Source: Candidatus Shapirobacteria bacterium
GTDB taxonomy: Bacteria > Patescibacteriota > Microgenomatia > VGLL01
Length of the DNA stretch: 60,671 nucleotides
Direction of reading: 5' to 3'
Assembly (NCBI GenBank): GCA_016866735.1
Contig: VGLL01000001.1
Coordinates: 1-60,671 of the forward strand
Of this stretch, positions 9,990 to 52,705 are shown one piece after another. The notes beneath the pieces were generated by a model. That model made no database searches, was not told the DNA's origin, and was given only the letters and a program-made list of their open reading frames with translations. Position numbers and translations under genes: made by a program. Each line of letters opens with the position of its first letter. Position 1 is the stretch's first letter.

Positions 9990-11301
9990 CGAACCCATAT
10001 TCTACTTAACTAATGATGTTAGCCACGGAATTGGCGTAGAAAAGTTACTGCCAAATTATCATATTATTTGCATTGACGATCACCCGTTAGTTACCTCTCT
10101 AATAGAGGCTGGGGTAAGGGTTTTGTGCCTCGAGAGACTTTTAAAAAGGAAAAATATAATCTTTCGGAGTAGCGGCAAGCTTTTAGAGCAGCCTGAAGTG
10201 GCAAACTATATAAAAGAAAATTCGGGTAGTAAGACGCCGAATATTCTTTATTTTAAACCCTCACCCAAAATTGACTCGCTTTGTCGAAAAAGGGGTTACC
10301 GGCGACTGGGCAACACGGCGTCATTGAATAGGATTTTTGAAGACAAAATTTCGTTTTACAAGATTTGCCACACCCTTGGGTTAGCTATTCCGCCGGGCCA
10401 AGTGGCTAACTTGGCTAAGGCAGACTTTCGAGATTTAAAAGAAAAGTATGGCCCAAAAGTAGTGATCCAATTTGGTCGGGGTTGGGCGGGATCAACCACT
10501 TTCTTTATTACCGATGCAGACCAGTTTAATAGACTAAAGTGCCGTTTCGGTAATTTGGAAGCGAAAATAACGAAATTTATAAACGGAAAAACTGTTCTTA
10601 ATAATTGTTGCGTCACTAGAAACGAGGTTTTAATAGGCCAGCCAGCGGAGCAGATACCAAGGATTTCGGATTTTACCGCCAAAGAAGGGGCAACCTGCGG
10701 CCGTATTTGGCCGGCGAGCCTTAATCGGGATCAAGTTTTACAGCTTGAAGAGATAACAAGGACCACTGGTGAATATATGCGCCAAAAAGGTTATTTGGGT
10801 TATTTTGGCCTTGATTTTCTTCTTTCCGAAGAGGGGGAAATCTATCTTTCCGAAAATAACGCTCGCTTTACCGCCTCCGCACCGTTTTACAGTAAGCTGG
10901 AGATAAAGAATGGGAGCTTGCCAATGGCGCTCTACCATATTTCGGTATTTCTCGGTGGTCCAGAAAATATGATAAAGTGGCAAAGAAAAGAGGTAACAGG
11001 GAGTGAAATCGTGGTTAGAAATAATCGTTCCTTGCCGATCACGATTAAGAAAGATTTTCAACCAGGGATATATAAGTTATGCAATTCCCTACCAAAGCCG
11101 GTGCGATCGGATTATGATGTTGGCGGCGCAAAGTCTGAGAGCGAGTTTTTCTTAACGGCAGCCGCTTACGGCAGAATCGTCAATCCCGAGATGGAGCTGG
11201 CCCGCCTAGACACTTTTGCATCCGTTAGAGAAAAAGATGGTAAACTTGCTGATTGGGCTATTAATTTGTTAAAACGTCTTAAAAAAGACCTAGCGGGCTG
11301 A
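9982..11301 (+). CDS. ATP-grasp domain protein (unknown ligase)
   Basis: C-terminal ATP-grasp pattern GYLGYFGLDFLLSEEGEIYLSENNARFTAS and a central VVIQFGRGWAGSTTFFI segment. It overlaps the PLP gene by 8 nt. Confidence 0.6.
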   Translation: MISEPIFYLTNDVSHGIGVEKLLPNYHIICIDDHPLVTSLIEAGVRVLCLERLLKRKNIIFRSSGKLLEQPEVANYIKENSGSKTPNILYFKPSPKIDSLCRKRGYRRLGNTASLNRIFEDKISFYKICHTLGLAIPPGQVANLAKADFRDLKEKYGPKVVIQFGRGWAGSTTFFITDADQFNRLKCRFGNLEAKITKFINGKTVLNNCCVTRNEVLIGQPAEQIPRISDFTAKEGATCGRIWPASLNRDQVLQLEEITRTTGEYMRQKGYLGYFGLDFLLSEEGEIYLSENNARFTASAPFYSKLEIKNGSLPMALYHISVFLGGPENMIKWQRKEVTGSEIVVRNNRSLPITIKKDFQPGIYKLCNSLPKPVRSDYDVGGAKSESEFFLTAAAYGRIVNPEMELARLDTFASVREKDGKLADWAINLLKRLKKDLAG

Positions 11302-15377: not shown

Positions 15378-15995
15378 TTATCTAACTAATTTTAGCACAT
15401 TTCCCGGATGGATTAGGTTGGGATTAGCGAGCTTATTGGCTTTGGCAATTTGTGACCATTTAAAGCCATCCTGATAGGCCCTAACGGCAATTTTCCAAAG
15501 ACTGTCTCCCTTAACCACGGTGTATTCCGTACCGCCTATCGGCTCGGCAGCTAGTAAGCCGCCCTTAGCTGTCTCTGTAGCCTGGACTACTGGCTGGCGA
15601 ACTTCTGCTTTAGGAATTCTCAGCTCCTGTCCTGCCAAAATTTTTTCCGGTCCTTTGAGGCCATTTTCCCGGGCGATGTCAACCCAATTATATCCCGAGC
15701 CATAAAACCTTAGGGCGATCTTCCAAAGACTATCACCCTTTTCGGTTTTATAGGTAATGGGCAATTCAGAGGAAACCGGCGATGGTGTGTTAGCAGGAGT
15801 AATGCTCGATGGCGTTTCTGGCCTTAGAAATGGTAAGCTCGGCCCCGTTATGCGGTTGATGCCGCGAAAATAGTTGAATAGCAAAAGACCGATTACAACA
15901 ACGACCAGAGTGCCCAAAACCACGCTTATGGCGCCCTCGGCTAACTTAAGACCCTTCAAAATATTTTTAATTGTCATGATACCTGCCTTATTCAC
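15378..15995 (-). CDS. membrane-anchored protein with two LysM domains
   Basis: It has an N-terminal TM segment and two LysM repeats (YKTEKGDSLWKIALRFYG...LAGQELRIP ; YTVVKGDSLWKIAVRAYQ...IHPGNVLKL). Confidence 0.85.
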   Translation of the reverse strand: MNKAGIMTIKNILKGLKLAEGAISVVLGTLVVVVIGLLLFNYFRGINRITGPSLPFLRPETPSSITPANTPSPVSSELPITYKTEKGDSLWKIALRFYGSGYNWVDIARENGLKGPEKILAGQELRIPKAEVRQPVVQATETAKGGLLAAEPIGGTEYTVVKGDSLWKIAVRAYQDGFKWSQIAKANKLANPNLIHPGNVLKLVR

Positions 15996-16044
15996 CCCCT
16001 TTCGGGCAGATTTTTTGGGCAGGTTTTGATAACCAAGTCAGAAT

Positions 16045-16206
16045 TGGCGGACCCGGCCGGACTCGAACCGGTGATCTCCCGCCCAAATTTGCGGGGCCGA
16101 CGAGACTTGAACTCGCGGCCTCTTCCGTGACAGGGAAGCGCTCTAGCCAACTGAGCTACGGCCCCAAATTTTTGGCGGGCTATGTTGACCGCTACACCAC
16201 GCGTCC
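16045..16206 (-). tRNA. tRNA-like gene whose anticodon region is interrupted by the complete tRNA-Asp gene (split, intron-containing or disrupted tRNA; identity unresolved)
   Basis: The minus-strand 5' half is GGACGCG-TG-GTGTAGCGGTCAACAT-A-GCCCGCC (acceptor plus a D-arm with an AGCGG loop). The 3' half is GGCGGGA-GATC-ACCGG-TTCGAGT-CCGGC-CGGGTCC-G-CCA (a T-arm with a canonical GTTCGAGTCC, an acceptor and an encoded CCA). The halves pair with each other except for one G-G and one A-C mismatch. Confidence 0.45.
16092..16165 (-). tRNA. tRNA-Asp (anticodon GTC)
   Basis: The reverse complement GGGGCCG-TA-GCTC-AGTTGGCTA-GAGC-G-CTTCC-CTGTCAC-GGAAG-AGGCC-GCGAG-TTCAAGT-CTCGT-CGGCCCC-G folds as a cloverleaf. 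No CCA is encoded. Confidence 0.92.
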
Positions 16207-16216
16207 ACGCAACTTC

Positions 16217-16246
16217 ATACTATCACATGATTGAGGTTTTAGTCAA
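16217..16246 (-). promoter_or_regulatory. sigma70-like promoter for the tRNA transcription unit
   Basis: The minus strand reads TTGACT (16246-16241), an 18-nt spacer, then TAGTAT (16222-16217). The predicted start lies a few nt upstream of the outer tRNA-like 5' end at 16206. Confidence 0.45.
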
Positions 16247-16267
16247 CCGGATGGTATCATTGCAAGT

Positions 16268-18070
16268 GTGACAAATAGGGAAATTGCAGAACTCTTACGA
16301 AGTATCGCAGCGGCCTATATAGTTAGAGGTGAAGATAGATTTCGAGTAATGGCATATCAGCGAGCGGCCGAGTCGGTTGATCACGCCACTAGCGAGGTTA
16401 AAGATTTATGGGATGACGGCAAGCTGAAAGAGCTAGCAGGCGTTGGTTCCGCGATTGCCTCGCATCTTGATGAGCTTTTCAAAACAGGGAGAGTAAAACA
16501 CTTCGATGAGGTTAAATCCGGATTGCCGCCAGCAATGTTTGCGCTTCTGGATATTCCCGGGATTGGCCCGAAGACTGCTTTTAGGCTCTGCCAAGAGCTT
16601 CAGCTAAAAGAAGAAAAAACCGCTATTTCCCAGCTAGAGAAAGCCGCCAGCGGCGGATTAATTAGAAAAATTGAGGGTTTTGGCAGTGAGTCGGAAAAAA
16701 GGATTCTAAGCGGCCTGAAAGCCCTTAAAAGGGGTCAAACCAAGGAGAAGAGGATGTTGCTGCCGTACGCTTTTGCGTTGGCGAAAGAGGTGATTGAGTA
16801 CCTTGCGGAATGCCCTGCCGTAATACGGGCTGACCCGCTGGGGTCGTTACGAAGAATGGTGGCGACCATAGGGGATATTGACATTGCCGCATCTACTAAA
16901 AATCCCAAGGACGTCATTCGCCATTTTATTAACTATTCTAAGATTAGGCGCGTTCTTAGCCGGGGAGAGGAAGCCCTAGCGAGAGTAATTTTACAAAGCG
17001 GCCGGCAAGTTGATCTGCGCTTGCAGCAACCAGAAGCATATGGGGCGATGCTTCAATATTTTACCGGAGGAAAAAGCCACAACATTGCCCTGCGCGAATA
17101 CGCGTTACAAAAAGGATTTTCTCTCTCCGAACACGGAATTAAAAACCTTAGAGATACAGACAAGAAAGTAAAAAAATATGCCGCGGAAGAAGATTTTTAT
17201 CGCGATTTGGGACTGAAGTGGATCCCTCCGGAGTTGCGGGAAAATATTGGCGAGATAGAGGCTGCCCTTCGCTCCGCCCAGGGTAAACCAGGCGGGCTTC
17301 CAGAACTTGTTAACTCCGGGGATATTAAAGGAGATCTGCACGTGCACTCAAATTTTCCGATAGAGACAAGTCACGATGAAGGGGAGAATTCCCCCGAGGA
17401 GATTCTGGCTAAGGCAAAAGATCTTGGTTACGAGTATCTTGGTTTTGCCGAGCACAACCCTTCGGTGAGCCAGCATAGTAAATATAAAATAATTGACATA
17501 TTAAAGCGTAAACAAGAAGTAATAGAACACTTAAAATACTCAAGAGTAAACAAAATATTCGTAAACCCAATTAATGGGCTTGAAATAGACATTAAGGCTG
17601 ATGGAACGTTAGCAGTTCCGGAAGAGGGGTTGGTTTTATTGGATTATGTTATTGCTTCAATACATTCAAGTTTTAATCTTAGCCGCGAGGAGATGACGGC
17701 ACGGGTATTGCGTGCGCTAGATCACCCGAAAGTGAGAATTTTTGGGCATCCTACAGGCAGAAAGATAAGTACCAGAGAGGGATATGAGCTTGACTGGGAA
17801 AAAATATTTGCATTTTGTAAGAGAAGGAATATCTGGTTGGAAATAAACGCCTGGCCAGATCGACTGGATTTACCAGATACGCTTGTGCGCGAAGCTGTGA
17901 AATATGGTGTGAAAATGATTATTTGCACCGATGCCCATGCCGTTAGTCACTTACCTTTAATCACTTATGGCGTGGCCGTTGCCAGAAGGGGTTGGGCGGA
18001 GAAGGAAGATATTATTAACGTTTTGGGGTATAATAAGTTTATGGAAATGATAAGGAAAGGGGGTGAATAG
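16268..18070 (+). CDS. polX: family X DNA polymerase with a C-terminal PHP domain (PolX)
   Basis: N-terminal HhH/8-kDa-like segments (NREIAELL..AYQRAA, IPGIGPKTA), a pol-beta nucleotidyltransferase motif (GSLRRMVATIGDIDI) and a PHP domain (GDLHVHSNFP.., FAEHNP, GHPTGR). It has a GTG start. Confidence 0.88.
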   Translation: MTNREIAELLRSIAAAYIVRGEDRFRVMAYQRAAESVDHATSEVKDLWDDGKLKELAGVGSAIASHLDELFKTGRVKHFDEVKSGLPPAMFALLDIPGIGPKTAFRLCQELQLKEEKTAISQLEKAASGGLIRKIEGFGSESEKRILSGLKALKRGQTKEKRMLLPYAFALAKEVIEYLAECPAVIRADPLGSLRRMVATIGDIDIAASTKNPKDVIRHFINYSKIRRVLSRGEEALARVILQSGRQVDLRLQQPEAYGAMLQYFTGGKSHNIALREYALQKGFSLSEHGIKNLRDTDKKVKKYAAEEDFYRDLGLKWIPPELRENIGEIEAALRSAQGKPGGLPELVNSGDIKGDLHVHSNFPIETSHDEGENSPEEILAKAKDLGYEYLGFAEHNPSVSQHSKYKIIDILKRKQEVIEHLKYSRVNKIFVNPINGLEIDIKADGTLAVPEEGLVLLDYVIASIHSSFNLSREEMTARVLRALDHPKVRIFGHPTGRKISTREGYELDWEKIFAFCKRRNIWLEINAWPDRLDLPDTLVREAVKYGVKMIICTDAHAVSHLPLITYGVAVARRGWAEKEDIINVLGYNKFMEMIRKGGE

Positions 18071-35243: not shown

Positions 35244-37018
35244 ATGAGAGAAGCATATTGCGGCGAATCCAAATCTACCTTTAAATCCAGTTTTCTGCCT
35301 TCACCTCTGGCTGAAAAAGTTCTCAGAGAAGGCCGTATCATAGGTGCCTCCGAGACACCTCAAATGATGATCAAAAGGATGGTCGAAGCGCTTTTTGTCC
35401 CCGAAACCTGCTTTGGGACCTCCACCGCCGAAATCCAGCGGTTAATCGAAGACTTCGGATTTTTTTTAGATGGAAAGTACTGCGTGATGAGTACGCCTGT
35501 CATGACAAATGCAGGCCGATATACAGATAGACCGTTATCTGCATGCGCTGTTCCGCCGCTTGATCTTCGAGGAGATCTCCGAAAAGTGAAACAAGTTGTT
35601 GATGAATTTCATCAAGCTGGTATGGGTACCGGCTTTAACCTTAATGATACCGAAAACCCAGTTGAGATTCTCGGATTTCTTAACGGTGTGGCCGTCGATG
35701 GTGCCAATAGCGGAAAGGAAAATCGTCCTGTTGGTAACATGGCAATTTTAAGTATCCACCACCCTCGCATCTTAGAGTTCATTGAGACGAAGGTTGGATC
35801 AGATGAGCGAGGAGAAAATTGGAAGTTTAATATCTCTATTGATGTAAGTCCAGAATTTATGTGTGCCGTTGGGGTAGGAGAGCATTATAGGCTAAGTGAT
35901 GGTACTTACCTAAATGCACGAGAAGTAATGTACCGCATTGCAGAAAGTGCTGTTGCCTGTGGAGACCCCGGATTGGTCTTTCTTGACCGTTTTGATAGAG
36001 ATAATCCCACGCCTGGGGTTGGAGCATATGTGGGCTAGCTCCTTGCGCAGAAGTGGGGCTCGTGGCTGGCGAATCATGCCAATTTGGGTATATCAACGTT
36101 GGTAAGTTTGTTGATCCGTTATCTGGTATTAACTATAGCCAGCTTGAAAAATTAATAAGATTAATGACTCGTGTTCTTGATAACGCTCTCGAATTTAGTA
36201 TTGAACATTACGCCCACCCACTTAATCAACAAGTAATGAGAGCAAAACGAAAAATCGGAGTAGGTATTTGCGGACTAGCTGATATGTTACTTCAACTTAG
36301 GTTACCATATAGCGATCTAAGATCAAGGAGAGTTGCGAAAGATGTTATAGCTTTCATTAACTACGTGTCCAAACTTGAATCTCATGAGCTTGCAAAACAA
36401 AGAGGCTCATTTGGGGCGATGGGCTTCGTTTCGGGTTGTCGATACAACGACAACCCTGGTTTTCTTGAGGAAAAATATGGATCTCTTGAAACAAGAACCG
36501 TTACTCCTATTATGTGGAGGGACCTTGCCTCTAAAATACGAGATACTCGGCTATTAAGAAATGCATCTACTGTTGCTCTACCCCCAACGGGAAGAAGTGG
36601 ACTCGTGATTGATGCATCTACAGGAATAGAGCCGATATTCTCGTTAGTTGGATACGGAGGAGAAATTAATCCATATCTTAAGCGAGAACTCGATAAAAGA
36701 CGGCTGCTTAACGAAGCTTTATGCCGACAAATTTTTGGACTCGGTCGTGTGGGAAGTATGGGAGGGGTTCCTCATGACATCAAAGCCGTCTATCAAACTG
36801 CGCTTGAGATAGAGCCGCAAGAACACCTTCTCATGGCTGGTGAAATTGAGAAAGCAGTTGACGAATCAATCGCGAAAACAGTAAATATACCAGGCGCATC
36901 AACTACCGACGATGTTGTGAAAATCTATCTTCAGGCGTATAAATTGCGTCTTAAGGGTATCACTATTTTTAGAACAGGAAGTAGAAAGATCCAGCCAAGA
37001 AAATTGGCAAATCTATGA
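35244..37018 (+). pseudogene. nrdJ: class II (adenosylcobalamin-type) ribonucleotide reductase interrupted by one frameshift near 36035
   Basis: ORF 35244-36038 ends ...GDPGLVFLDRFDRDNPTPGVGAYVG*. The frame shifted by -1 continues ..LAPCAEVGLVAGESCQFGYINV (the NPCGE..ESCNLGSINL active-site region) to 37018. Other RNR motifs are MSTPVMTNAG, LSACAV and HHPRILEFIETK. Confidence 0.75.
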
Positions 37019-45994: not shown

Positions 45995-48025
45995 ATGGGG
46001 AACATATTAGATAATTTAAAAACTTTGCTCCAAAAAGACGAACGGTTAGTGAGCGAAGGTGAGCTTTTGAAGAATAAAATAATTGAACTTGTTCTGAAGC
46101 TGGATAAAGACCTCATTAAACTCCTTTTATCTGATAAAAGAATGCGGGGGGTATTTTTTCTTGAAATTGACGGGGTGCTTATTTTTGATAAAGACAAGTT
46201 TATTAAATTTGTTTCTAGTAAGGATTTTCTGCCGGATTCTTATACTGCTTTCAAGAATAAGATTGGCTTAACTATTGGTGATGAATTTCTTAGCGAGAAA
46301 AAAGAAGTCGTACTTTCTTGGCCGTATAAGGATTGTGTCTTGGAAGGTGGGATGACTAAAGAGGACCAAAAGCGGGACGAAGTTTTTTGGAATCAAACCC
46401 TAGCGCCCGATGAAATCAGCCGCCTTTTAGATTCAAAAGTTTTTACCAATGCCAGAAGAATTGACGTTAAAGGTGAACATGAACCGGATAAATTCAAAAC
46501 TGATGAGAAAGGCGACATTAAAGACAATCTTATTATCAAGGGCAATAATCTTTTAGCTCTCTACTCCCTCAAAAAACGCTTCGCCGGAAAAGTAAAACTC
46601 ATCTACATCGACCCGCCATACAACCGTGAAGATGAGAATTTCTACAACGATAGTTTTAGGCATTCTACATGGTTGATTTTTATGAAAAATAGGATAGAAA
46701 TAGCCAGAAAATTATTGAACAATGATGGTGTCATTTTTGTGCAAATTGACTTTAGGGAATTGGCATATTTAAAAGTTTTAATGGATGAGGTTTTTGATAG
46801 AAAAAATTTTATTGGACAAATCAACTGGCAAAGAGTGCCAGAGGGGAGGACACTACTTGGTCAAGGGGAAAGTGACTTAAAGATCTCAACAGAATATCTT
46901 TTAGTTTATGCCAGAGACAAAAAGCCCGACATTTTAAATAGCAGTGTTAAGAAATTGATTGATGCCACTGAGAAGATAATTCAACAATATTCCTATGTCC
47001 TTAAGACAAATTCTAAACCAATAGAGGTAAAAAGACTTAAAGATAGTAAGGGCAGAGACGTTATTTTTTATAAAGTCCAAGATTTTGAGTTGCGACCATT
47101 GCGAGATAAAAGTATAGAAAATTATATTAGAAATTATGAAAATATGGTACAGTCTGTTGGTATACAAGAGGAAAGTACTTTCCAACAAAGACTTCTTTTT
47201 GAGACTAAAAAGATAGATACTCTGTGTATAGTGGAGTATGTTCCCGCTAAAGGAAAAAGAAAGGGGGAGAAATTGAGAGATTATTTTATTAAGGATAGGA
47301 AGTTGTTATTTGCAAAAGAATTTTCTGTTTTTAAAAATGAAAGACTATATAGAGAGGGCGATATTAATGACTTTTGGAGCAATAGTGAAATCCAAGTTAC
47401 AGATATTGCTGGAGAGGGTGCAGTGTCCCTGCGAAGAGGGAAAAAGCCCGAAGAACTATTACGTCGAGTTATAGATTGGACAACGTATAAAGATGAGATT
47501 GTTCTAGATTTCTTTATGGGCACCGGAACTACTTGCGCTGTGGCTCACAAAATGGGTCGGCAATATATTGGAGTTGAGCAGCTAGACTACGGGGAAAATG
47601 GCGCAGGGGTAAGATTAAAAAATGTCATCAACGGTGACCAAACCGGTATTTCAAAATCCGTTGGCTGGAAAGGTGGCGGGGATTTTGTTTATTTAGAACT
47701 GATGAAATGGAATGAAAATTTTGTCGGGAAAATCCAGCAAGCAAAAACGAAAGATGAATTAAAAAAGTTATGGGAGGCGATGAAAGAACGGGCGTTTTTG
47801 AGTTATAAAGTTGATGTTAAAGCGATTGATGCACAGGCTCCCGCCTCCGCTAAAGCTACGGCGGGCAAGGAAGATTTTGCGGATTTATCGCTTGAAGACC
47901 AAAAAAGATTTTTACTGGAGTGTTTAGATAAAAACCATCTCTATGTCAATTACAGCGAAATTGAGGATGAAGAGTATGGAGTGAGCGAAGAAGATAAAAG
48001 TTTAAATAGGGATTTTTATTTATGA
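45995..48025 (+). CDS. mod: type III restriction-modification system methyltransferase (Mod, N6-adenine, beta-class motif order)
   Basis: LIYIDPPYN (motif IV) precedes FFMGTGTTCAVAHKMGRQYIGVE (motif I). The N-terminus LLQKDERLVSEGELLKNKI is typical of Mod proteins. A res gene lies downstream. Confidence 0.88.
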   Translation: MGNILDNLKTLLQKDERLVSEGELLKNKIIELVLKLDKDLIKLLLSDKRMRGVFFLEIDGVLIFDKDKFIKFVSSKDFLPDSYTAFKNKIGLTIGDEFLSEKKEVVLSWPYKDCVLEGGMTKEDQKRDEVFWNQTLAPDEISRLLDSKVFTNARRIDVKGEHEPDKFKTDEKGDIKDNLIIKGNNLLALYSLKKRFAGKVKLIYIDPPYNREDENFYNDSFRHSTWLIFMKNRIEIARKLLNNDGVIFVQIDFRELAYLKVLMDEVFDRKNFIGQINWQRVPEGRTLLGQGESDLKISTEYLLVYARDKKPDILNSSVKKLIDATEKIIQQYSYVLKTNSKPIEVKRLKDSKGRDVIFYKVQDFELRPLRDKSIENYIRNYENMVQSVGIQEESTFQQRLLFETKKIDTLCIVEYVPAKGKRKGEKLRDYFIKDRKLLFAKEFSVFKNERLYREGDINDFWSNSEIQVTDIAGEGAVSLRRGKKPEELLRRVIDWTTYKDEIVLDFFMGTGTTCAVAHKMGRQYIGVEQLDYGENGAGVRLKNVINGDQTGISKSVGWKGGGDFVYLELMKWNENFVGKIQQAKTKDELKKLWEAMKERAFLSYKVDVKAIDAQAPASAKATAGKEDFADLSLEDQKRFLLECLDKNHLYVNYSEIEDEEYGVSEEDKSLNRDFYL

Positions 48026-48720
48026 ATGAAATTATAAAATCTCTACATGAGATAGTTGCCGTATTGAAAGATCCTAAAGACTTTTGGGTAAATATAACTT
48101 TAGCAATATCTACTTTTATAGCGGTAATAGTAGCTTTATTTCAGGAAAAAATAAAAAAACATTGGAATAAAGCTACATTAGATCTAAGAATAGACTTAAA
48201 TCCTCCTGATTGCCATCAAATTTCGTTAATAGACCTTCGTACGGGAAAGTTTGTGGGTCAATCTATTTACATTAGGATAAAAGTTATTCACAGAAAAGGA
48301 GGGGCCGGCGAGAATGTTGAAATTATGCCGATTAACTTTTTCCGCATTAAAGGTGATGGGAAACTGGAAAAGTTAAAACATTTTTTACCAATAAGTTTGG
48401 CCTGGAGTCATTTTCAGCCGCGTACGAATCTTAGTCGTATTCCCGTTAATTTATTTAGACATTGCGATTTTGGACACTTTGTTAAGGATCTAAAAGATAA
48501 CAATAAAGCCGTTTTAATTTTAGATACCATGGTGCAACCTAATCCGGTGGCAGAAAGCGAAGTTCCAAACATTATTAAACCAGGAAAATATCAGTTTGAA
48601 TTATTACTTAGTGGCGATAATGTTAAGCCTATTAAAAAGGAATGGAAGCTAGAATTTGATAAATGGAGCGAGGATGAAAAAGAAATGCTAACCAAAAATA
48701 TTAGCATAGAAGAAATTTGA
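48022..48720 (+). CDS. uncharacterised single-pass membrane protein, translationally coupled to mod
   Basis: The ATG overlaps the mod stop (ATGA). It has one TM segment (WVNITLAISTFIAVIVALF). No motif was recognised in the 180-aa C-terminal domain. Confidence 0.55.
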   Translation: MNEIIKSLHEIVAVLKDPKDFWVNITLAISTFIAVIVALFQEKIKKHWNKATLDLRIDLNPPDCHQISLIDLRTGKFVGQSIYIRIKVIHRKGGAGENVEIMPINFFRIKGDGKLEKLKHFLPISLAWSHFQPRTNLSRIPVNLFRHCDFGHFVKDLKDNNKAVLILDTMVQPNPVAESEVPNIIKPGKYQFELLLSGDNVKPIKKEWKLEFDKWSEDEKEMLTKNISIEEI

Positions 48721-48742
48721 TTTTTTCTTATTAATGGATGGT

Positions 48743-48768
48743 ATGCTCTACGAAACTTTTAATTCAAT
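48743..48768 (+). repeat. copy 1 of a 26-nt direct repeat identical to the first 26 nt of res (25/26 match)
   Basis: ATGCTCTACGAAACTTTTAATTCAAT is followed directly by the ATG of the next ORF. It forms the mini-ORF MLYETFNSI*, whose TGA overlaps that ATG. Confidence 0.9.
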
Positions 48769-49020
48769 ATGAAAGACAAGAAGATACAAACTCCAACTAA
48801 AATTGCCATTTTCAGAGGCAGAAGAGTGCGGAGAACTATTTATAAAGATGAATGGTGGTTTTCTGTCAGCGACATTATTGAAGCTTTAACCGGTACAGAT
48901 AGACCGAGAAAATATTGGCATGATCTTAAGAAAAAGCTCATCGACGAAAGGTATTCCGAGGTGTCCGAAAAAATCGGACAGTTGAAATTACAATTTAACT
49001 ATGCTCTACGAAACTCTTAA
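48769..49020 (+). CDS. BRO-N-like DNA-binding domain protein (possibly truncated)
   Basis: IAIFRGRRVRRTIYKDEWWFSVSDIIEALTG fits the Bro-N pattern (f.g..vR.....ge.wF.a.Dv..aLg). The last 6 codons are supplied by repeat copy 2. Confidence 0.45.
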   Translation: MKDKKIQTPTKIAIFRGRRVRRTIYKDEWWFSVSDIIEALTGTDRPRKYWHDLKKKLIDERYSEVSEKIGQLKLQFNYALRNS

Positions 49021-49026
49021 CTAAAT
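49001..49026 (+). repeat. copy 2 of the 26-nt res-5' repeat (23/26 match to copy 1)
   Basis: ATGCTCTACGAAACTCTTAACTAAAT is followed directly by the ATG of the KTSC ORF. It forms the mini-ORF MLYETLN*. Confidence 0.9.
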
Positions 49027-49239
49027 ATGCACAGAATTCCCGTAACTTCATCGAATATTCGCTCAATTGGCTACGATCCGGAATCGCAAATTTTGAAGGT
49101 GGAGTTCAATTCAGGAGAAGTTTATCAATATTTCGATGTTCCCGAGCATCTTTATCAAGAGCTTATGAAAGCCTCATCGCCTGGACGTTTTTTGAATGAT
49201 TATATTAAATATAGTTATCGTTACCAAAAAATTACTTAG
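49027..49239 (+). CDS. KTSC domain protein
   Basis: VTSSNIRSIGYDPESQILKVEFNSGEVYQYFDVPEHLYQELMKASSPGRFLNDYIK is the KTSC signature (s.i..igYd.....L.v.F..G..Y.Y..VP...y..l..a.S.G.yfn..Ik). Confidence 0.75.
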   Translation: MHRIPVTSSNIRSIGYDPESQILKVEFNSGEVYQYFDVPEHLYQELMKASSPGRFLNDYIKYSYRYQKIT

Positions 49240-49242
49240 TGT

Positions 49243-50028
49243 ATGTTTAGTCCCAAAACTGAAAAAATAAAAAAGATCACCGAAAGAAACCAAGAGGCAG
49301 TCGAACGATTAGAAAAGCTTCTTGGAAACTCTACGAGAGTTTATATTGATTACGCCAATGTGCGACCGTGGAGCACAAAACTGCACTGGCACATTGACCT
49401 TAGGCGGCTAAAACAGTTTTTGGATTCTTTTGACACAGTGGGAGCGGTAAGTTTTTACGGTGGCTATATCAAGGGTGACGAACGATCGGAGAGAGAAATA
49501 AAGCAGGTTGAAGATCTGGCATATATTGTGCGGACTAAGCCAGTGAAATTTTTGCGATTTTCCATCAACGCTTCTAGCATTTCGGCAGATTCTACTGCCT
49601 TACTAAAACCATTTATCCGGCGAGCCCTGTTACGAAAGTATGAGGTCTCCACTATCGAATATCTCAACGAACGTTTTGCTGATATGAACAAGAAGGGAGA
49701 ATATTACATTGAAGACAGAAAATGCAATTTTGATGTTGAGATTAGTACCGATATGCTTCTTGATTCTGAACGCAAAAATGGGGAGATTTTTGTTTTATGG
49801 AGTGGCGATAGCGATTTTGCGGAGCCTGTAAAGAAGTTATTGGAGGCAGGCAGAAAGGTGGTATTATGCGCAACGGCGGGGAAAATTTCCAGCGAGCTTA
49901 ATACTCTAAGAGTAAAAGGACTAGAAGTATTTGATATCTTTCACATTAAGGACTTAATTTGCTGGAACAGGGAAATAAATAAAAGGTTAGATAAAAGCAC
50001 AAAGGACTCCGTTTCCGGAGCCCCTTAG
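49243..50028 (+). CDS. NYN-domain (LabA/DUF88-like PIN-fold) putative RNase
   Basis: VYIDYANV at the N-terminus, CNFDVEISTDML and VLWSGDSDFAEPVKKLLEAGRKVVL match the NYN acidic motifs. It starts 3 nt after the KTSC stop. Confidence 0.65.
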   Translation: MFSPKTEKIKKITERNQEAVERLEKLLGNSTRVYIDYANVRPWSTKLHWHIDLRRLKQFLDSFDTVGAVSFYGGYIKGDERSEREIKQVEDLAYIVRTKPVKFLRFSINASSISADSTALLKPFIRRALLRKYEVSTIEYLNERFADMNKKGEYYIEDRKCNFDVEISTDMLLDSERKNGEIFVLWSGDSDFAEPVKKLLEAGRKVVLCATAGKISSELNTLRVKGLEVFDIFHIKDLICWNREINKRLDKSTKDSVSGAP

Positions 50029-50098
50029 CACTAGAGTTAGTGATCTTTCGATCAAGGCAAAGTATAGCGCAAAGAAGACAAAAGTCAAGGATCAATTT

Positions 50099-50124
50099 AT
50101 GCTCTACGAAATTTTTAATTCAAT
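50099..50124 (+). repeat. copy 3 (the resident copy) of the 26-nt repeat, equal to codons 1-9 of res
   Basis: ATGCTCTACGAAATTTTTAATTCAAT was read directly. Confidence 0.9.
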
Positions 50125-52705
50125 TAAGGATTCATTTGGAGCGGATTATTTTACCTCGCGAGTTAGTAATGAAATAGTCCAAAATCTCAATCCAAAGTTT
50201 GAACTGCGAGAATATCAAAAAGAAGCGCTAGGAAGATTCGATTTTTATTTTAATGGCTACCAAAAAAGAAAATTTCCAGCGCAATTACTTTTCCATATGG
50301 CCACCGGTAGTGGCAAGACGCTGATTATGGCCGCCAATATTTTGTCTCTCTACAAACTTGGCTACCGCAACTTCATCTTTTTTGTCAATAGTGTAAATAT
50401 TATTGAAAAAACGCGAGATAATTTTTTAAATCCCCTATCGGAAAAATATCTTTTCTCTCCTACCATTAGGTTTGGCGAAAAACAAATTGAGATTAGAGAA
50501 GGCAAAAATTTTGCGGCCGCAAGCCCCGAAGATATAAATATTCTTTTTACCACAATTCAGGGATTGCATGTTCGCTTGAATTACCCTAAGGAAGATGCTC
50601 TAACCTACGAAGATTTTGCCGACAAAGAAATTATTTTAATTTCTGATGAAGCCCACCACTTGCAGACAATAACAAAAGGCAATAGGGAAGAAATCGAATT
50701 AGAAAAAAGCTGGGAGCATACAGTTGAACGTGTCTTTAGAAGTAATTTTAAAAATATTTTATTGGAGTTTACGGCCACAATTGATTTGGGTAATGAAAAT
50801 ATAAGGCAGAAATACGAAGACAAAATTATCTTTCAATACGACTTAAAGCAGTTCAGGTTAGATAAATACTCAAAAGAAATAGAAGTTTTGCAGGCAGACT
50901 TAGAACCGGTTGACCGGGCCTTACAGGCGGTTATTTTAAGCCAGTATCGCCGCAAGATAGCTGAAAAATACAAGTTGCGCTTAAAGCCGGTACTACTTTT
51001 CAAGTCCAAAAGCATTAAAGAATCAAAAGAAAATTATGATGATTTTTTGGAAAAGATGAAAAACTTGAAGTCAAGCGACTTGCAGGAAATATGTTCCCGA
51101 TCCCAAGGAACAGATATAGAAAAGGCATTTAATTATCTTAAAAAAGAAGACATAACTTTTGACAATTTTATTAAAGAATTACAAGAGGATTTTGCTGAAG
51201 AAAAATGTATGCTTTTGGATTCAGAACATGTAGATGAAGAAAAACAATTAAAACTCAATTCCCTGGAGAACAAAAACAACGAGATAAGGGCAATATTTGC
51301 GGTTAATATGTTAAATGAAGGGTGGGATGTGCTAAATCTTTTTGATATCGTCCGGCTCTATGACACACGCGACGGCAAATACGTTCATGGTAAATATAAG
51401 CCGGGCAACACGACAATGGGAGAAGCCCAACTTATTGGTAGAGGAGCAAGATATTTTCCATTCCAATTAGATGAAGTTCAGGATAAATATAAAAGAAAAT
51501 TTGATGAGGATGCCGAGAATGAATTGCGAGCAGTAGAAACATTATATTATCACAGCGCCCATAACCCCGATTATATTAGTGAGATAAAAAGTGCCCTGAC
51601 GGAAATAGGAATTTTGCCAGAAAAGTATTCTCAATTAGAAATGAAAATTAAAGATGATTTCAAGAAAACGGATTTTTGGAAAGACGGAGTGATTTTTATA
51701 AATGATAGAATAGCGAACCCAAGAACAGAAATTTTTAGTTTAGAAGACGCAAAAGTTGAGCGAAGCTACGCGCATAAATTAAAAACAGGAGAGATAAGAG
51801 AAAAGGTTATTCTAGACGAAGATGAAGAGATTAAGCCAAGAGACGTTGTGCGTAGTAAAATGAAATATAAACTTTCTGATTTCGGAGAAAATATAGTTAG
51901 AAGTGCTTTAGACAAGCTTGAGTTCTATCGATTTGAGACACTAAGAGAATATTTTCCCCACATAAGGTCGGTGAAAGAGTTTATTGCCTCTAATAATTAT
52001 TTAGGTGGAATTGAGATAGAGGTTTCTGGGCCAAAAGATAAACTGAATAAACTACTACCGATTGAGAAATTGGAAATGGCTTTATTTGTAGTTAGAAATG
52101 TAGCGGAAAAGGCAAGGATTAATACCTCGGATTTTGTAGGAACTAATCTATTTAAGGCGAGGTTGTTGCGGCAAGTTTTCAAAGATAAAAAAATCAAAAT
52201 AGACATCGATGAAGTGAAGAACCAAAAATTAGAGAATGTTAATTTGGTCGAGAAAGATTGGTATGCTCAAAATGAATTTTATGGCACGGATGAGGAGCAA
52301 AATTTCATCAACTTCCTCGATGGATTTATAGAGAAATTGAGACAAAAATATTCAGATATGGCCTTACTTCGCAATGAAAAATTTTTTCAAGTTTTTGACT
52401 TTAGTGAAGGTAGAGCGTTTGAGCCGGATTTTTTGATGTTATTAAAGAGAAGAAACCACAAAATTAGTATTTACCAGATTTTTATTGAGCCGAAGGGAGA
52501 TCTATTTAAAGATGGCCAAGGCAGATTTGAAAATTCAAAAGAGGGATGGAAGCAAAAATTTTTGCTTGAGGCGGAAAAACGAGTAAAGATTGACCTAAAA
52601 CTTGAAAGCAAAAACTTTAAACTCATCGGGTTGCCTTTTTACAATGAAAAACTGAAAAGAGAATTTGAAGAAGCTCTTGAAAATAAAATTTTATCTGATC
52701 TGTGA
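50099..52705 (+). CDS. res: type III restriction enzyme Res subunit (SF2 helicase plus C-terminal PD-(D/E)xK nuclease)
   Basis: HMATGSGKT (motif I), LISDEAHH (DEAH), TATI, NMLNEGWDV and a C-terminal FEPDFLML...IFIEPKG nuclease motif. Confidence 0.88.
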   Translation: MLYEIFNSIKDSFGADYFTSRVSNEIVQNLNPKFELREYQKEALGRFDFYFNGYQKRKFPAQLLFHMATGSGKTLIMAANILSLYKLGYRNFIFFVNSVNIIEKTRDNFLNPLSEKYLFSPTIRFGEKQIEIREGKNFAAASPEDINILFTTIQGLHVRLNYPKEDALTYEDFADKEIILISDEAHHLQTITKGNREEIELEKSWEHTVERVFRSNFKNILLEFTATIDLGNENIRQKYEDKIIFQYDLKQFRLDKYSKEIEVLQADLEPVDRALQAVILSQYRRKIAEKYKLRLKPVLLFKSKSIKESKENYDDFLEKMKNLKSSDLQEICSRSQGTDIEKAFNYLKKEDITFDNFIKELQEDFAEEKCMLLDSEHVDEEKQLKLNSLENKNNEIRAIFAVNMLNEGWDVLNLFDIVRLYDTRDGKYVHGKYKPGNTTMGEAQLIGRGARYFPFQLDEVQDKYKRKFDEDAENELRAVETLYYHSAHNPDYISEIKSALTEIGILPEKYSQLEMKIKDDFKKTDFWKDGVIFINDRIANPRTEIFSLEDAKVERSYAHKLKTGEIREKVILDEDEEIKPRDVVRSKMKYKLSDFGENIVRSALDKLEFYRFETLREYFPHIRSVKEFIASNNYLGGIEIEVSGPKDKLNKLLPIEKLEMALFVVRNVAEKARINTSDFVGTNLFKARLLRQVFKDKKIKIDIDEVKNQKLENVNLVEKDWYAQNEFYGTDEEQNFINFLDGFIEKLRQKYSDMALLRNEKFFQVFDFSEGRAFEPDFLMLLKRRNHKISIYQIFIEPKGDLFKDGQGRFENSKEGWKQKFLLEAEKRVKIDLKLESKNFKLIGLPFYNEKLKREFEEALENKILSDL

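Follow-up and report, generated by a model that had tools for sequence, protein, structure and literature searches.

The stretch of DNA analysed here (the window) is the 60,671-nt contig VGLL01000001.1 from the assembly GCA_016866735.1 of a Candidatus Shapirobacteria bacterium, and its subject is a tRNA gene that contains another tRNA gene. Within 16206..16045 on the minus strand, two tRNA halves bracket a complete tRNA-Asp(GTC) (Table 1). A preliminary description of this DNA had reported tRNA-like halves around a complete 74-nt tRNA-Asp(GTC), two mismatches in the outer fold, a helix formed by the flanks of the inner gene and a promoter just upstream of the outer 5' half, and each of these features was recovered: the arrangement by reading of the sequence, ARAGORN and Rfam; the mismatches as G5.G68 in the acceptor stem and A49.C65 in the T stem; the helix as the pairings CCCGCC/GGCGGG and AAATTT/AAATTT in the minimum-free-energy fold, where the outer acceptor stem encloses the whole stretch; and the promoter as a promoter-like site in a consensus scan. 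Relatives possess a TTGAC..-10 box at the same place upstream of an intact tRNA-Asp. No terminator-like site was found downstream of the nested locus in the scan that detected the promoter-like site. A short direct repeat lies on either side of the insert, and the outer and inner genes of the window have no long repeat in common.

In Microgenomates, the gap between the lysM and polX genes houses a tRNA-Asp(GTC) behind a conserved promoter, and this gene occurs as two sequence types that differ by lineage. Type B genes have the D arm GTGTAGCGGTTAACA and usually encode CCA; type A genes have the D arm GCTCAGTTGGYTAGAGC and do not encode CCA. The outer gene of the nested locus belongs to type B and the inner gene to type A, as detailed below.

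Table 1. Features of the nested tRNA-Asp locus of the window, listed in the direction of the minus strand
Feature	Position	Strand	Remarks
Promoter-like site TTGACT-18-TAGTAT	16217..16246	-	Consensus scan; about 10 nt 5' of outer G1
Outer type B tRNA-Asp, positions 1-26	16181..16206	-	Acceptor GGACGCG, TG, D arm GTGT-AGCGGTCA-ACAT, A26
Extra G, CCCGC (5' anticodon-stem strand, positions 27-31) and C32	16174..16180	-	Homologous to TCCGC/GCGGA of L133
5' linker AAAAATTT, 8 nt	16166..16173	-	Final six bases pair with the 3' linker
Inner type A tRNA-Asp(GTC), 74 nt	16092..16165	-	Full cloverleaf, G73, CCA not encoded
3' linker CAAATTTG, 8 nt	16084..16091	-	
G38 and GCGGG (3' anticodon-stem strand, positions 39-43)	16078..16083	-	Aligned to GCGGA-AGATC-GCCGG of L133
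Outer positions 44-76	16045..16077	-	Variable loop AGATC, T arm ACCGG-TTCGAGT-CCGGC, acceptor CGGGTCC, G73, CCA
9-nt direct repeat AAATTTGGG	16171..16163 and 16090..16082		Either side of the insert

The inner gene has all the features of a canonical bacterial tRNA, including a 7-nt anticodon loop; ARAGORN calls it Asp(GTC), and the Rfam model RF00005 matches it with 70 bits against a gathering score of 29. CCA is not encoded in the tRNA-Gly and tRNA-Leu genes of the window either, so its absence from the inner gene is normal in this setting. The inner gene shares 97% identity with the free-standing type A gene of L167, and a metagenome scan with its anticodon-arm and T-arm sequence yielded 39 loci, in many of which type A is the only tRNA-Asp and occupies the same slot, composed of promoter, tRNA, the CTGCCYGGAAAGGAGG motif and the lysM gene. 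Type A fills the lysM/polX slot in most other Microgenomates and is also found in other settings of the candidate phyla radiation, for example beside thrS and dprA. In a tree of the N-terminal region of PolX, the type B loci form one clade that includes the window, and all loci outside this clade carry type A. Each relative locus that was fetched (a few kb around the slot) had one tRNA-Asp. Viral contigs were scanned for the inner tRNA and for patterns of the cassette junctions, with no relevant match, and blastn against phage GenBank entries returned generic tRNA-Asp similarity alone (74–82%). A separate case is L184, a type B clade member whose PolX N-terminal region shares 69% identity with that of L133: at 1228-1510 of its minus strand, the body of the tRNA-Asp is type A-like, whereas the anticodon arm, TCCGC-CTGTCAC-GCGGA, is of the L133 type; this gene may be a recombinant between type A and type B.

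The outer gene is best understood by comparison with the relatives L003, L008, L129/L130, L131 and L133, which have a single intact type B tRNA-Asp(GTC) in the same gap, on the same strand and with the same promoter arrangement (for example, GGACCCG TA GTGT AATGGTTA ACAT G TCGCC CTGTCGA GGCGA AGACT GCCGG TTCGAAT CCGGT CGGGTCC G CCA in L131). Positions 1-26 and 44-76 of the joined outer halves can be aligned, from one end to the other, with the tRNA-Asp genes that hold the corresponding place in five relatives; the anticodon arm alone is missing. Local alignment further matches the 3' flank to L133 from position 39 (GCGGG-AGATC-ACCGG versus GCGGA-AGATC-GCCGG), which identifies CCCGC/GCGGG as the anticodon stem of the outer gene itself, with C32 and G38 paired. 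Only loop positions 33-37 are thus replaced, and one extra G precedes the anticodon stem. Once the anticodon arm of a relative is restored, ARAGORN calls the outer gene tRNA-Asp(GTC), and a genome-contig scan with its D arm GTGTAGCGGTNAACA led to tRNA-Asp in 119 of the 120 Bacillota matches listed. It also carries the G73 and G10 expected of tRNA-Asp, together with the D arm and variable loop of the syntenic Asp genes. Taken together, the orthology, the call obtained after restoration of the arm and the D-arm scan identify the outer gene, on sequence grounds, as the resident tRNA-Asp, an ortholog of the type B gene of the relatives, and not as a tRNA for Gln, Glu or Lys.

In situ, the outer gene is not a canonical RF00005 tRNA, as a contiguous cloverleaf with an anticodon loop is absent. 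Neither the Rfam tRNA model (E<=10) nor ARAGORN in intron mode called it; intron-tolerant ARAGORN with lowered thresholds, a check suggested by the preliminary description, returned the inner tRNA only, and Rfam in E-value mode over 15950-16300 gave no second tRNA but two sub-threshold chance matches on the opposite strand. All 120 matches listed from the genome-contig scan for the outer D arm followed by the outer T arm were two adjacent normal tRNAs in Bacillota tandem arrays, and no match was obtained for the outer D arm closely before the inner D arm in a metagenome-contig collection without the window organism. The segment GCCCGCC...GGCGGG had also been considered as the end of a neighbouring array tRNA or as a repeat hairpin, and both ideas were dropped for the window after the alignment with L133. 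These ideas had been prompted by similar hairpins in L003, L155 and L148 and by the viral contig L178, in which a pair of tRNAs is spaced by regular AAATTTA units and the leader GCCCGCCA resembles the 5' linker of the window.

The nested arrangement is found in independent data. The whole 286-nt interval is identical in L001 (Logan SRR16108674), in L209 (JGI 3300020221) and in the metagenome-assembled genome that contains the window, and the 5' junction is also found in L002 (SRR7052952); the identity of the interval across independent data sets shows that the nesting is real DNA and not a mis-join. No polymorphism was found at the nested locus of the window organism, all copies being identical. 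A wrong joining of tRNA-Asp alleles from coexisting strains might be suspected, given that one Logan contig of the window organism stops within the inner tRNA and that every contig of a second nested locus, L142 (see below), breaks inside the outer gene. Such an artefact has a negligible probability for the window, where both junctions are spanned in three data sets and where the outer and inner genes offer no long shared repeat.

The preliminary description had offered, as one option, an intron-containing tRNA whose intron is another tRNA: the inner tRNA would be excised by RNase P and RNase Z, and the outer exons would be ligated to a functional tRNA, e.g., tRNA-Gln(UUG). The outer gene does retain a promoter, D arm, T arm, acceptor stem and CCA, and the products of RNase P and RNase Z would bear 3'-OH and 5'-phosphate ends held together by the helix. 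However, no anticodon loop is left in the outer gene, and cuts at the ends of the inner tRNA followed by joining would give a long arm without a 7-nt loop. Among 196 artificial joins, ARAGORN accepts many, Gln(TTG) among them, but with anticodons created by the join (Phe, Lys, Gln, Ile and others); since the anticodon is set by the join, this test cannot assign identity. The anticodons UUG, UUC or UUU, which would give the Gln, Glu or Lys identity considered earlier, appear in a 7-nt loop only through arbitrary, hand-picked joins, and the Gln loop requires cut sites chosen by no known enzyme, whereas orthology, G73, the D arm and the variable loop all point to Asp. As the preliminary description had noted, there is no bulge-helix-bulge motif (the region folds into 6 bp, an AA/G internal loop, 6 bp and a GC bulge) and no group I intron (no Rfam intron match; of the 90-nt insert, 74 nt are tRNA). 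Moreover, none of 52 distinct functional tRNA-Asp genes (types A and B and Bacillota) has a mismatch in the acceptor or T stem, whereas the outer gene has two, one per stem, and equivalent outer shells elsewhere lack the 5' half or have T-loop insertions. We therefore regard the intron-like reading as extremely improbable. As a separate observation, the viral contigs L177, L179, L180 and L181 contain tRNA-like genes that start normally (GGGGTGGTAGCTCAGTTGGTAGAGC...), have long insertions after the D arm or anticodon region and continue with a normal T arm; these may be intron-containing phage tRNAs.

Comparison of relatives reveals several stages in the fate of the outer gene. In L132/L152, a type A gene is preceded by only GGGT of the old gene and followed by CA and the type B 3' half; an intact type B gene is retained in L133, whose PolX shares 90% identity with theirs. 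The variable loop of the 3' half in L132/L152 is shortened, and its T loop carries an inserted 38-nt hairpin. L132/L152 and the window form separate branches inside the type B clade of the PolX tree. In L162 and L155, type A genes are followed by decayed type B 3' halves, with alignment scores of 35 and 27 compared to 14–18 for control trailers, and L148 has a decayed type A 5' fragment, ending at position 38, upstream of the working gene. Finally, the promoter and downstream flanks of L151 (type A) and L008 (type B) are alike, so that clean replacements also exist. The series from full nest through 3' relic to clean swap argues that the shell of the window is a relic. In the window, L132, L162, L155 and L142, the right junction in the resident gene falls at about positions 38-44, and the left junction and the length of the donor trailer vary. 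The preliminary description had proposed to look for the same nesting in related genomes; a second Asp-in-Asp nest does exist, in L142/L173.

Several repeat elements were seen near these genes. The 38-nt hairpin CTCGCCCCGTGAACTGAGCGAAGCGAAGTTTTACGGGG separates the T stem from the T loop in the type B relics of L132 (~1290-1360) and L152 (~10185-10255), and GCGAAGCGA-type hairpins together with ~33-nt tandem repeats are found downstream of tRNA-Asp in L184, L148, L155 and L162. These hairpins and repeats may represent a Microgenomates family of small repeat elements. The loci L129 (606-906) and L130 (357-657), both read on the minus strand, have an intact type B tRNA-Asp with a 104-nt insertion behind it. 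The insertion is flanked by an 18-nt direct repeat, AATCCGGTCGGGTCCGCC, which runs from the T loop to the tRNA 3' end. The close relative L131 is without the insertion, which resembles an att-type scar left by a small or degraded integrative element.

Another suggestion of the preliminary description was a split tRNA held together by the long helix. For a functional two-piece tRNA, the absence of a bulge-helix-bulge motif or group I intron, the two uncompensated mismatches and the decaying shells elsewhere all speak against it. Another version would have the two outer pieces remain annealed after release of the inner tRNA and serve a function other than decoding. Folded together, the pieces reach a predicted -32 kcal/mol in a cloverleaf-like structure with a long nicked arm, and the shell is better kept than the linkers between it and the inner gene. 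Yet the shell has no anticodon, its mismatches are uncompensated, and it is not kept as a unit in L132/L152, L155, L162 and L148, while the copies from the window organism are all identical and give no measure of constraint. A functional two-piece RNA thus appears very unlikely.

The comparative data support the third option of the preliminary description, in which precise insertion of tRNA-Asp destroyed a tRNA gene, and the destroyed gene is the resident tRNA-Asp(GTC). Very likely, a type A insertion disrupted the resident type B tRNA-Asp, so that the inner gene provides the working tRNA and the outer gene persists as a relic leader and trailer. Under this explanation, the resident promoter would drive a single precursor transcript, in which the outer 5' part and its linker would form the leader of the inner tRNA, and the other linker and the outer 3' part its trailer. 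By analogy with standard bacterial tRNA maturation, RNase P would cut at the inner G1, where the -1 base is U, and RNase Z or an equivalent 3' endonuclease would cut after G73, followed by CCA addition to yield the tRNA-Asp of the cell. The outer halves, which cannot decode since no anticodon loop is left, would persist at most for a while as a base-paired by-product. As to the origin, the insertion may have arisen by recombination or break repair at the resident anticodon loop with foreign type A tRNA-Asp DNA. In what is apparently the sole tRNA-Asp gene, only an insert that supplies tRNA-Asp survives, which makes the event self-complementing. The resulting combination, in which the loop of a type B anticodon arm holds a type A tRNA, may since have passed between lineages, and the window allele may have come by homologous recombination through the outer halves from an already nested lineage.

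The origin and spread of the insert can be further examined in the second nest. In L142, whose locus is also represented by the contigs L173-L176, the anticodon loop of a type A gene contains another, full type A gene, in the order ...CTCAGTTGGTTAGAGCGCTTCCCTG, CTCGCCCGCCACAATGA, full type A tRNA-Asp, CTCATGTAGGCGGATAAGA and GAAGAGGTAGCGGGTTCGAGTCCCGTTCACCCCG. The relative L183 has an uninterrupted ortholog of the L142 outer gene with the same downstream sequence, from which it follows that the L142 insert replaced TCACG at positions 35-39. Both inserts have G-CCCGC-C and then 7–8 nt before the tRNA, and C, 7 nt and G-GCGG(G/A) after it. The repeat AAATTTGGG is not present at the L142 junctions. 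The L142 arms resemble the type B (L133-like) anticodon stem, now within a type A gene, and the PolX N-terminal region of the L142 lineage shares only 46–50% identity with its counterpart in the type B clade. Next to the inner acceptor stem, the helix reads AAATTT/AAATTT in the window and ATGA/TCAT in L142, in the same register and with three compensatory pairs. The flanking duplexes of the two nests have energies of -15.3 and -13.8 kcal/mol, compared to a median of -2.3 for ordinary loci and -2.1 for cross-locus controls. Leader-trailer pairing as a general trait of these tRNA-Asp genes was tried and rejected, as ordinary loci do not differ from cross-locus controls (Mann-Whitney p=0.09).

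All four L142-type contigs (L173-L176) start inside the locus; three of them, from three assemblies, start at the same outer D-loop base, and L176 starts 48 nt further in. The initial 25 nt of these contigs are an exact repeat of the inner gene, and the upstream half of the outer gene lies beyond the contig start. In L173, a 530-aa large serine recombinase with the Resolvase, Recombinase and Zn_ribbon_recom domains (1031-2630) abuts or overlaps a tRNA-Gly(CCC) just downstream of the lysM gene; a mobile element is apparently integrated beside the nested locus.

The likeness of the two nests raises the possibility, which we consider doubtful, of a mobile mini-cassette of ~100–115 nt, in which a tRNA-Asp flanked by GC-rich stem strands (G-CCCGC-C ... 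G-GCGGR) moves non-autonomously, targets the anticodon loops of resident tRNA-Asp genes and is tolerated as the carrier of a replacement tRNA. This proposal competes with a self-complementing insertion on origin and spread only. The linkers of the window and L142 are homologous and have the same ends (5' GCCCGCC-A.AA.T..|tRNA and tRNA|C..AT.T.-GGCGG), the frequency of GCCCGCC in these genomes is only 4.7e-5 per site, and the host genes differ in type (B and A) in lineages as distant as their PolX identities indicate. The outlying duplex energies, the compensatory pairs in one register and the constant right junction with a variable left one fit such an element as well. Conversely, the full cassettes found number just two, neither the 39 type A loci nor the viral contigs yielded a free or donor copy bearing such arms, and there is no target-site duplication or associated transposase or recombinase in the window. 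The arms also look like an ordinary type B anticodon stem, so that plain homologous recombination through the outer halves could account for transfer between type B genes. We put forward only tentatively that a transferable module, in which the loop of an anticodon-arm hairpin holds a tRNA-Asp gene, repeatedly invades tRNA-Asp anticodon loops across distant Microgenomates, replaces their function and is kept as a structured precursor.

Several points weigh against the explanation by a self-complementing insertion with a relic shell. The shell is well preserved, with an intact D arm and T loop and roughly 77–85% identity to its orthologs, which reflects either a recent event or some weaker selection on the shell. 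The three compensatory helix changes between the window and L142 hint that the precursor structure matters, and the pure relic view leaves them unexplained. The window retains no recombinase, target-site duplication or element body that would show how the insertion occurred, and a second tRNA-Asp gene may lie beyond the visible 60.7 kb. While the anatomy, orthology, recurrence and decay were shown, the proposed expression and processing draw on the sequence and on general knowledge of tRNA maturation.

Among known systems, the nearest published logic is that of tRNA-dependent lysogeny, in which a phage enters an essential, single-copy host tRNA gene without rebuilding it and brings a compensating same-isotype tRNA (Guerrero-Bustamante & Hatfull 2024, PMC10865867). 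The resident tRNA gene of the window is likewise disrupted without reconstruction, and attB sites at the anticodon loop are common among mycobacteriophages (PMC10865867). In actinobacteriophages, however, a whole prophage of tens of kilobases is integrated by a tyrosine integrase and the compensating tRNA lies elsewhere in the phage (PMC10865867), whereas the insert of the window is ~90 nt, essentially a tRNA alone, and sits exactly in the loop. No integrase or phage genes, and no tyrosine integrase or prophage with a common attP/attB core, were found in the window.

tRNA genes are hot spots of recombination, and genomic islands in tRNA and tmRNA genes regenerate their target, displace a fragment and leave partial-tRNA scars beside a functional copy (Islander, PMC4383910; PMC9897764). 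The L129/L130 locus, with the direct repeat of the tRNA 3' end around its 104-nt insert, has this classic island signature. In contrast, nothing is duplicated in the window, where the neighbours are lysM, polX, ftsA and lemA, and the fragments are complementary halves of one gene with the functional tRNA, the other allele, between them. Bacterial group I introns in tRNA anticodon loops interrupt the gene at the same site (bioRxiv 10.1101/2020.01.27.920355), but they are self-splicing ribozymes of ~200–400 nt that restore the loop, whereas the insert of the window is a tRNA with no group I match and its loop is unrestorable.

Similar to the window, archaeal disrupted tRNA genes can hold a functional small RNA within a tRNA gene, and the flanks of the interruption form a helix. 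For example, a box C/D RNA lies inside the intron of archaeal pre-tRNA-Trp. The archaeal repertoire includes bulge-helix-bulge introns as well as split and permuted tRNAs (reviewed in PMC4390854). In archaeal and eukaryotic disrupted tRNAs, a splicing endonuclease acts on the bulge-helix-bulge motif, in which a 4-bp helix lies between two 3-nt bulges where exon and intron meet, and the exons yield a working tRNA, whereas the window belongs to a bacterium, the motif is absent and the outer gene is non-functional. The gene content of the window is bacterial (a splicing endonuclease was not searched for genome-wide), and the two halves are colinear behind one promoter with no anticodon loop, which separates them from split and permuted tRNAs, whose halves come from separate transcripts or in permuted order and are joined to a decoding tRNA. 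We found no paper on a bacterial tRNA gene nested in a tRNA gene, although our coverage of the literature was incomplete and this is absence of evidence only. The window locus can thus be described as a tRNA-gene disruption compensated by a same-isotype tRNA on the insert, a variant that was not found in the literature.

The remaining genes of the window include ftsW, murG, ftsA, a lysM-domain gene, polX, lemA, an M48 peptidase gene, gatCAB and dnaE. Homologues of its PolX come from organisms named Microgenomates, Shapirobacteria, Woesebacteria and Gottesmanbacteria, the closest one from another organism being 66% identical; the host is a bacterium of the candidate phyla radiation (Microgenomates). 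A stretch of low GC content (0.35–0.39 versus ~0.45 elsewhere) at 45995-52705 carries a type III restriction-modification system (Mod, 45995-48025; Res, 50099-52705) together with an NYN-domain protein (49243-50028), and is probably an acquired defence island. At 35244-37018, a separate open reading frame of 264 aa precedes another (36053-37018) whose match to the ribonucleotide reductase barrel is confined to the C-terminal half (profile positions 226-522), so the ribonucleotide reductase gene may be split or interrupted.

The nested locus indicates that an essential, apparently single-copy tRNA gene can be replaced in place by a new copy inside the old one, with the promoter kept and the halves of the old gene turned into a leader and a trailer. 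It also calls for caution in annotation, as automatic calls give one normal tRNA-Asp and overlook the shell, and intron-tolerant searches could mis-call exotic tRNAs. If the insert is indeed a mobile cassette, it would be a very small piece of mobile DNA whose sole cargo is the gene it destroys; its flank helix would be under selection, and it would act as a selfish self-complementing tRNA cassette or as a tRNA-gene-replacement drive operating via loop-targeted recombination. With lineages at different stages, namely the full nest, the 3' half only and the clean swap, these loci provide a natural system for the study of tRNA-gene turnover in bacteria of the candidate phyla radiation.

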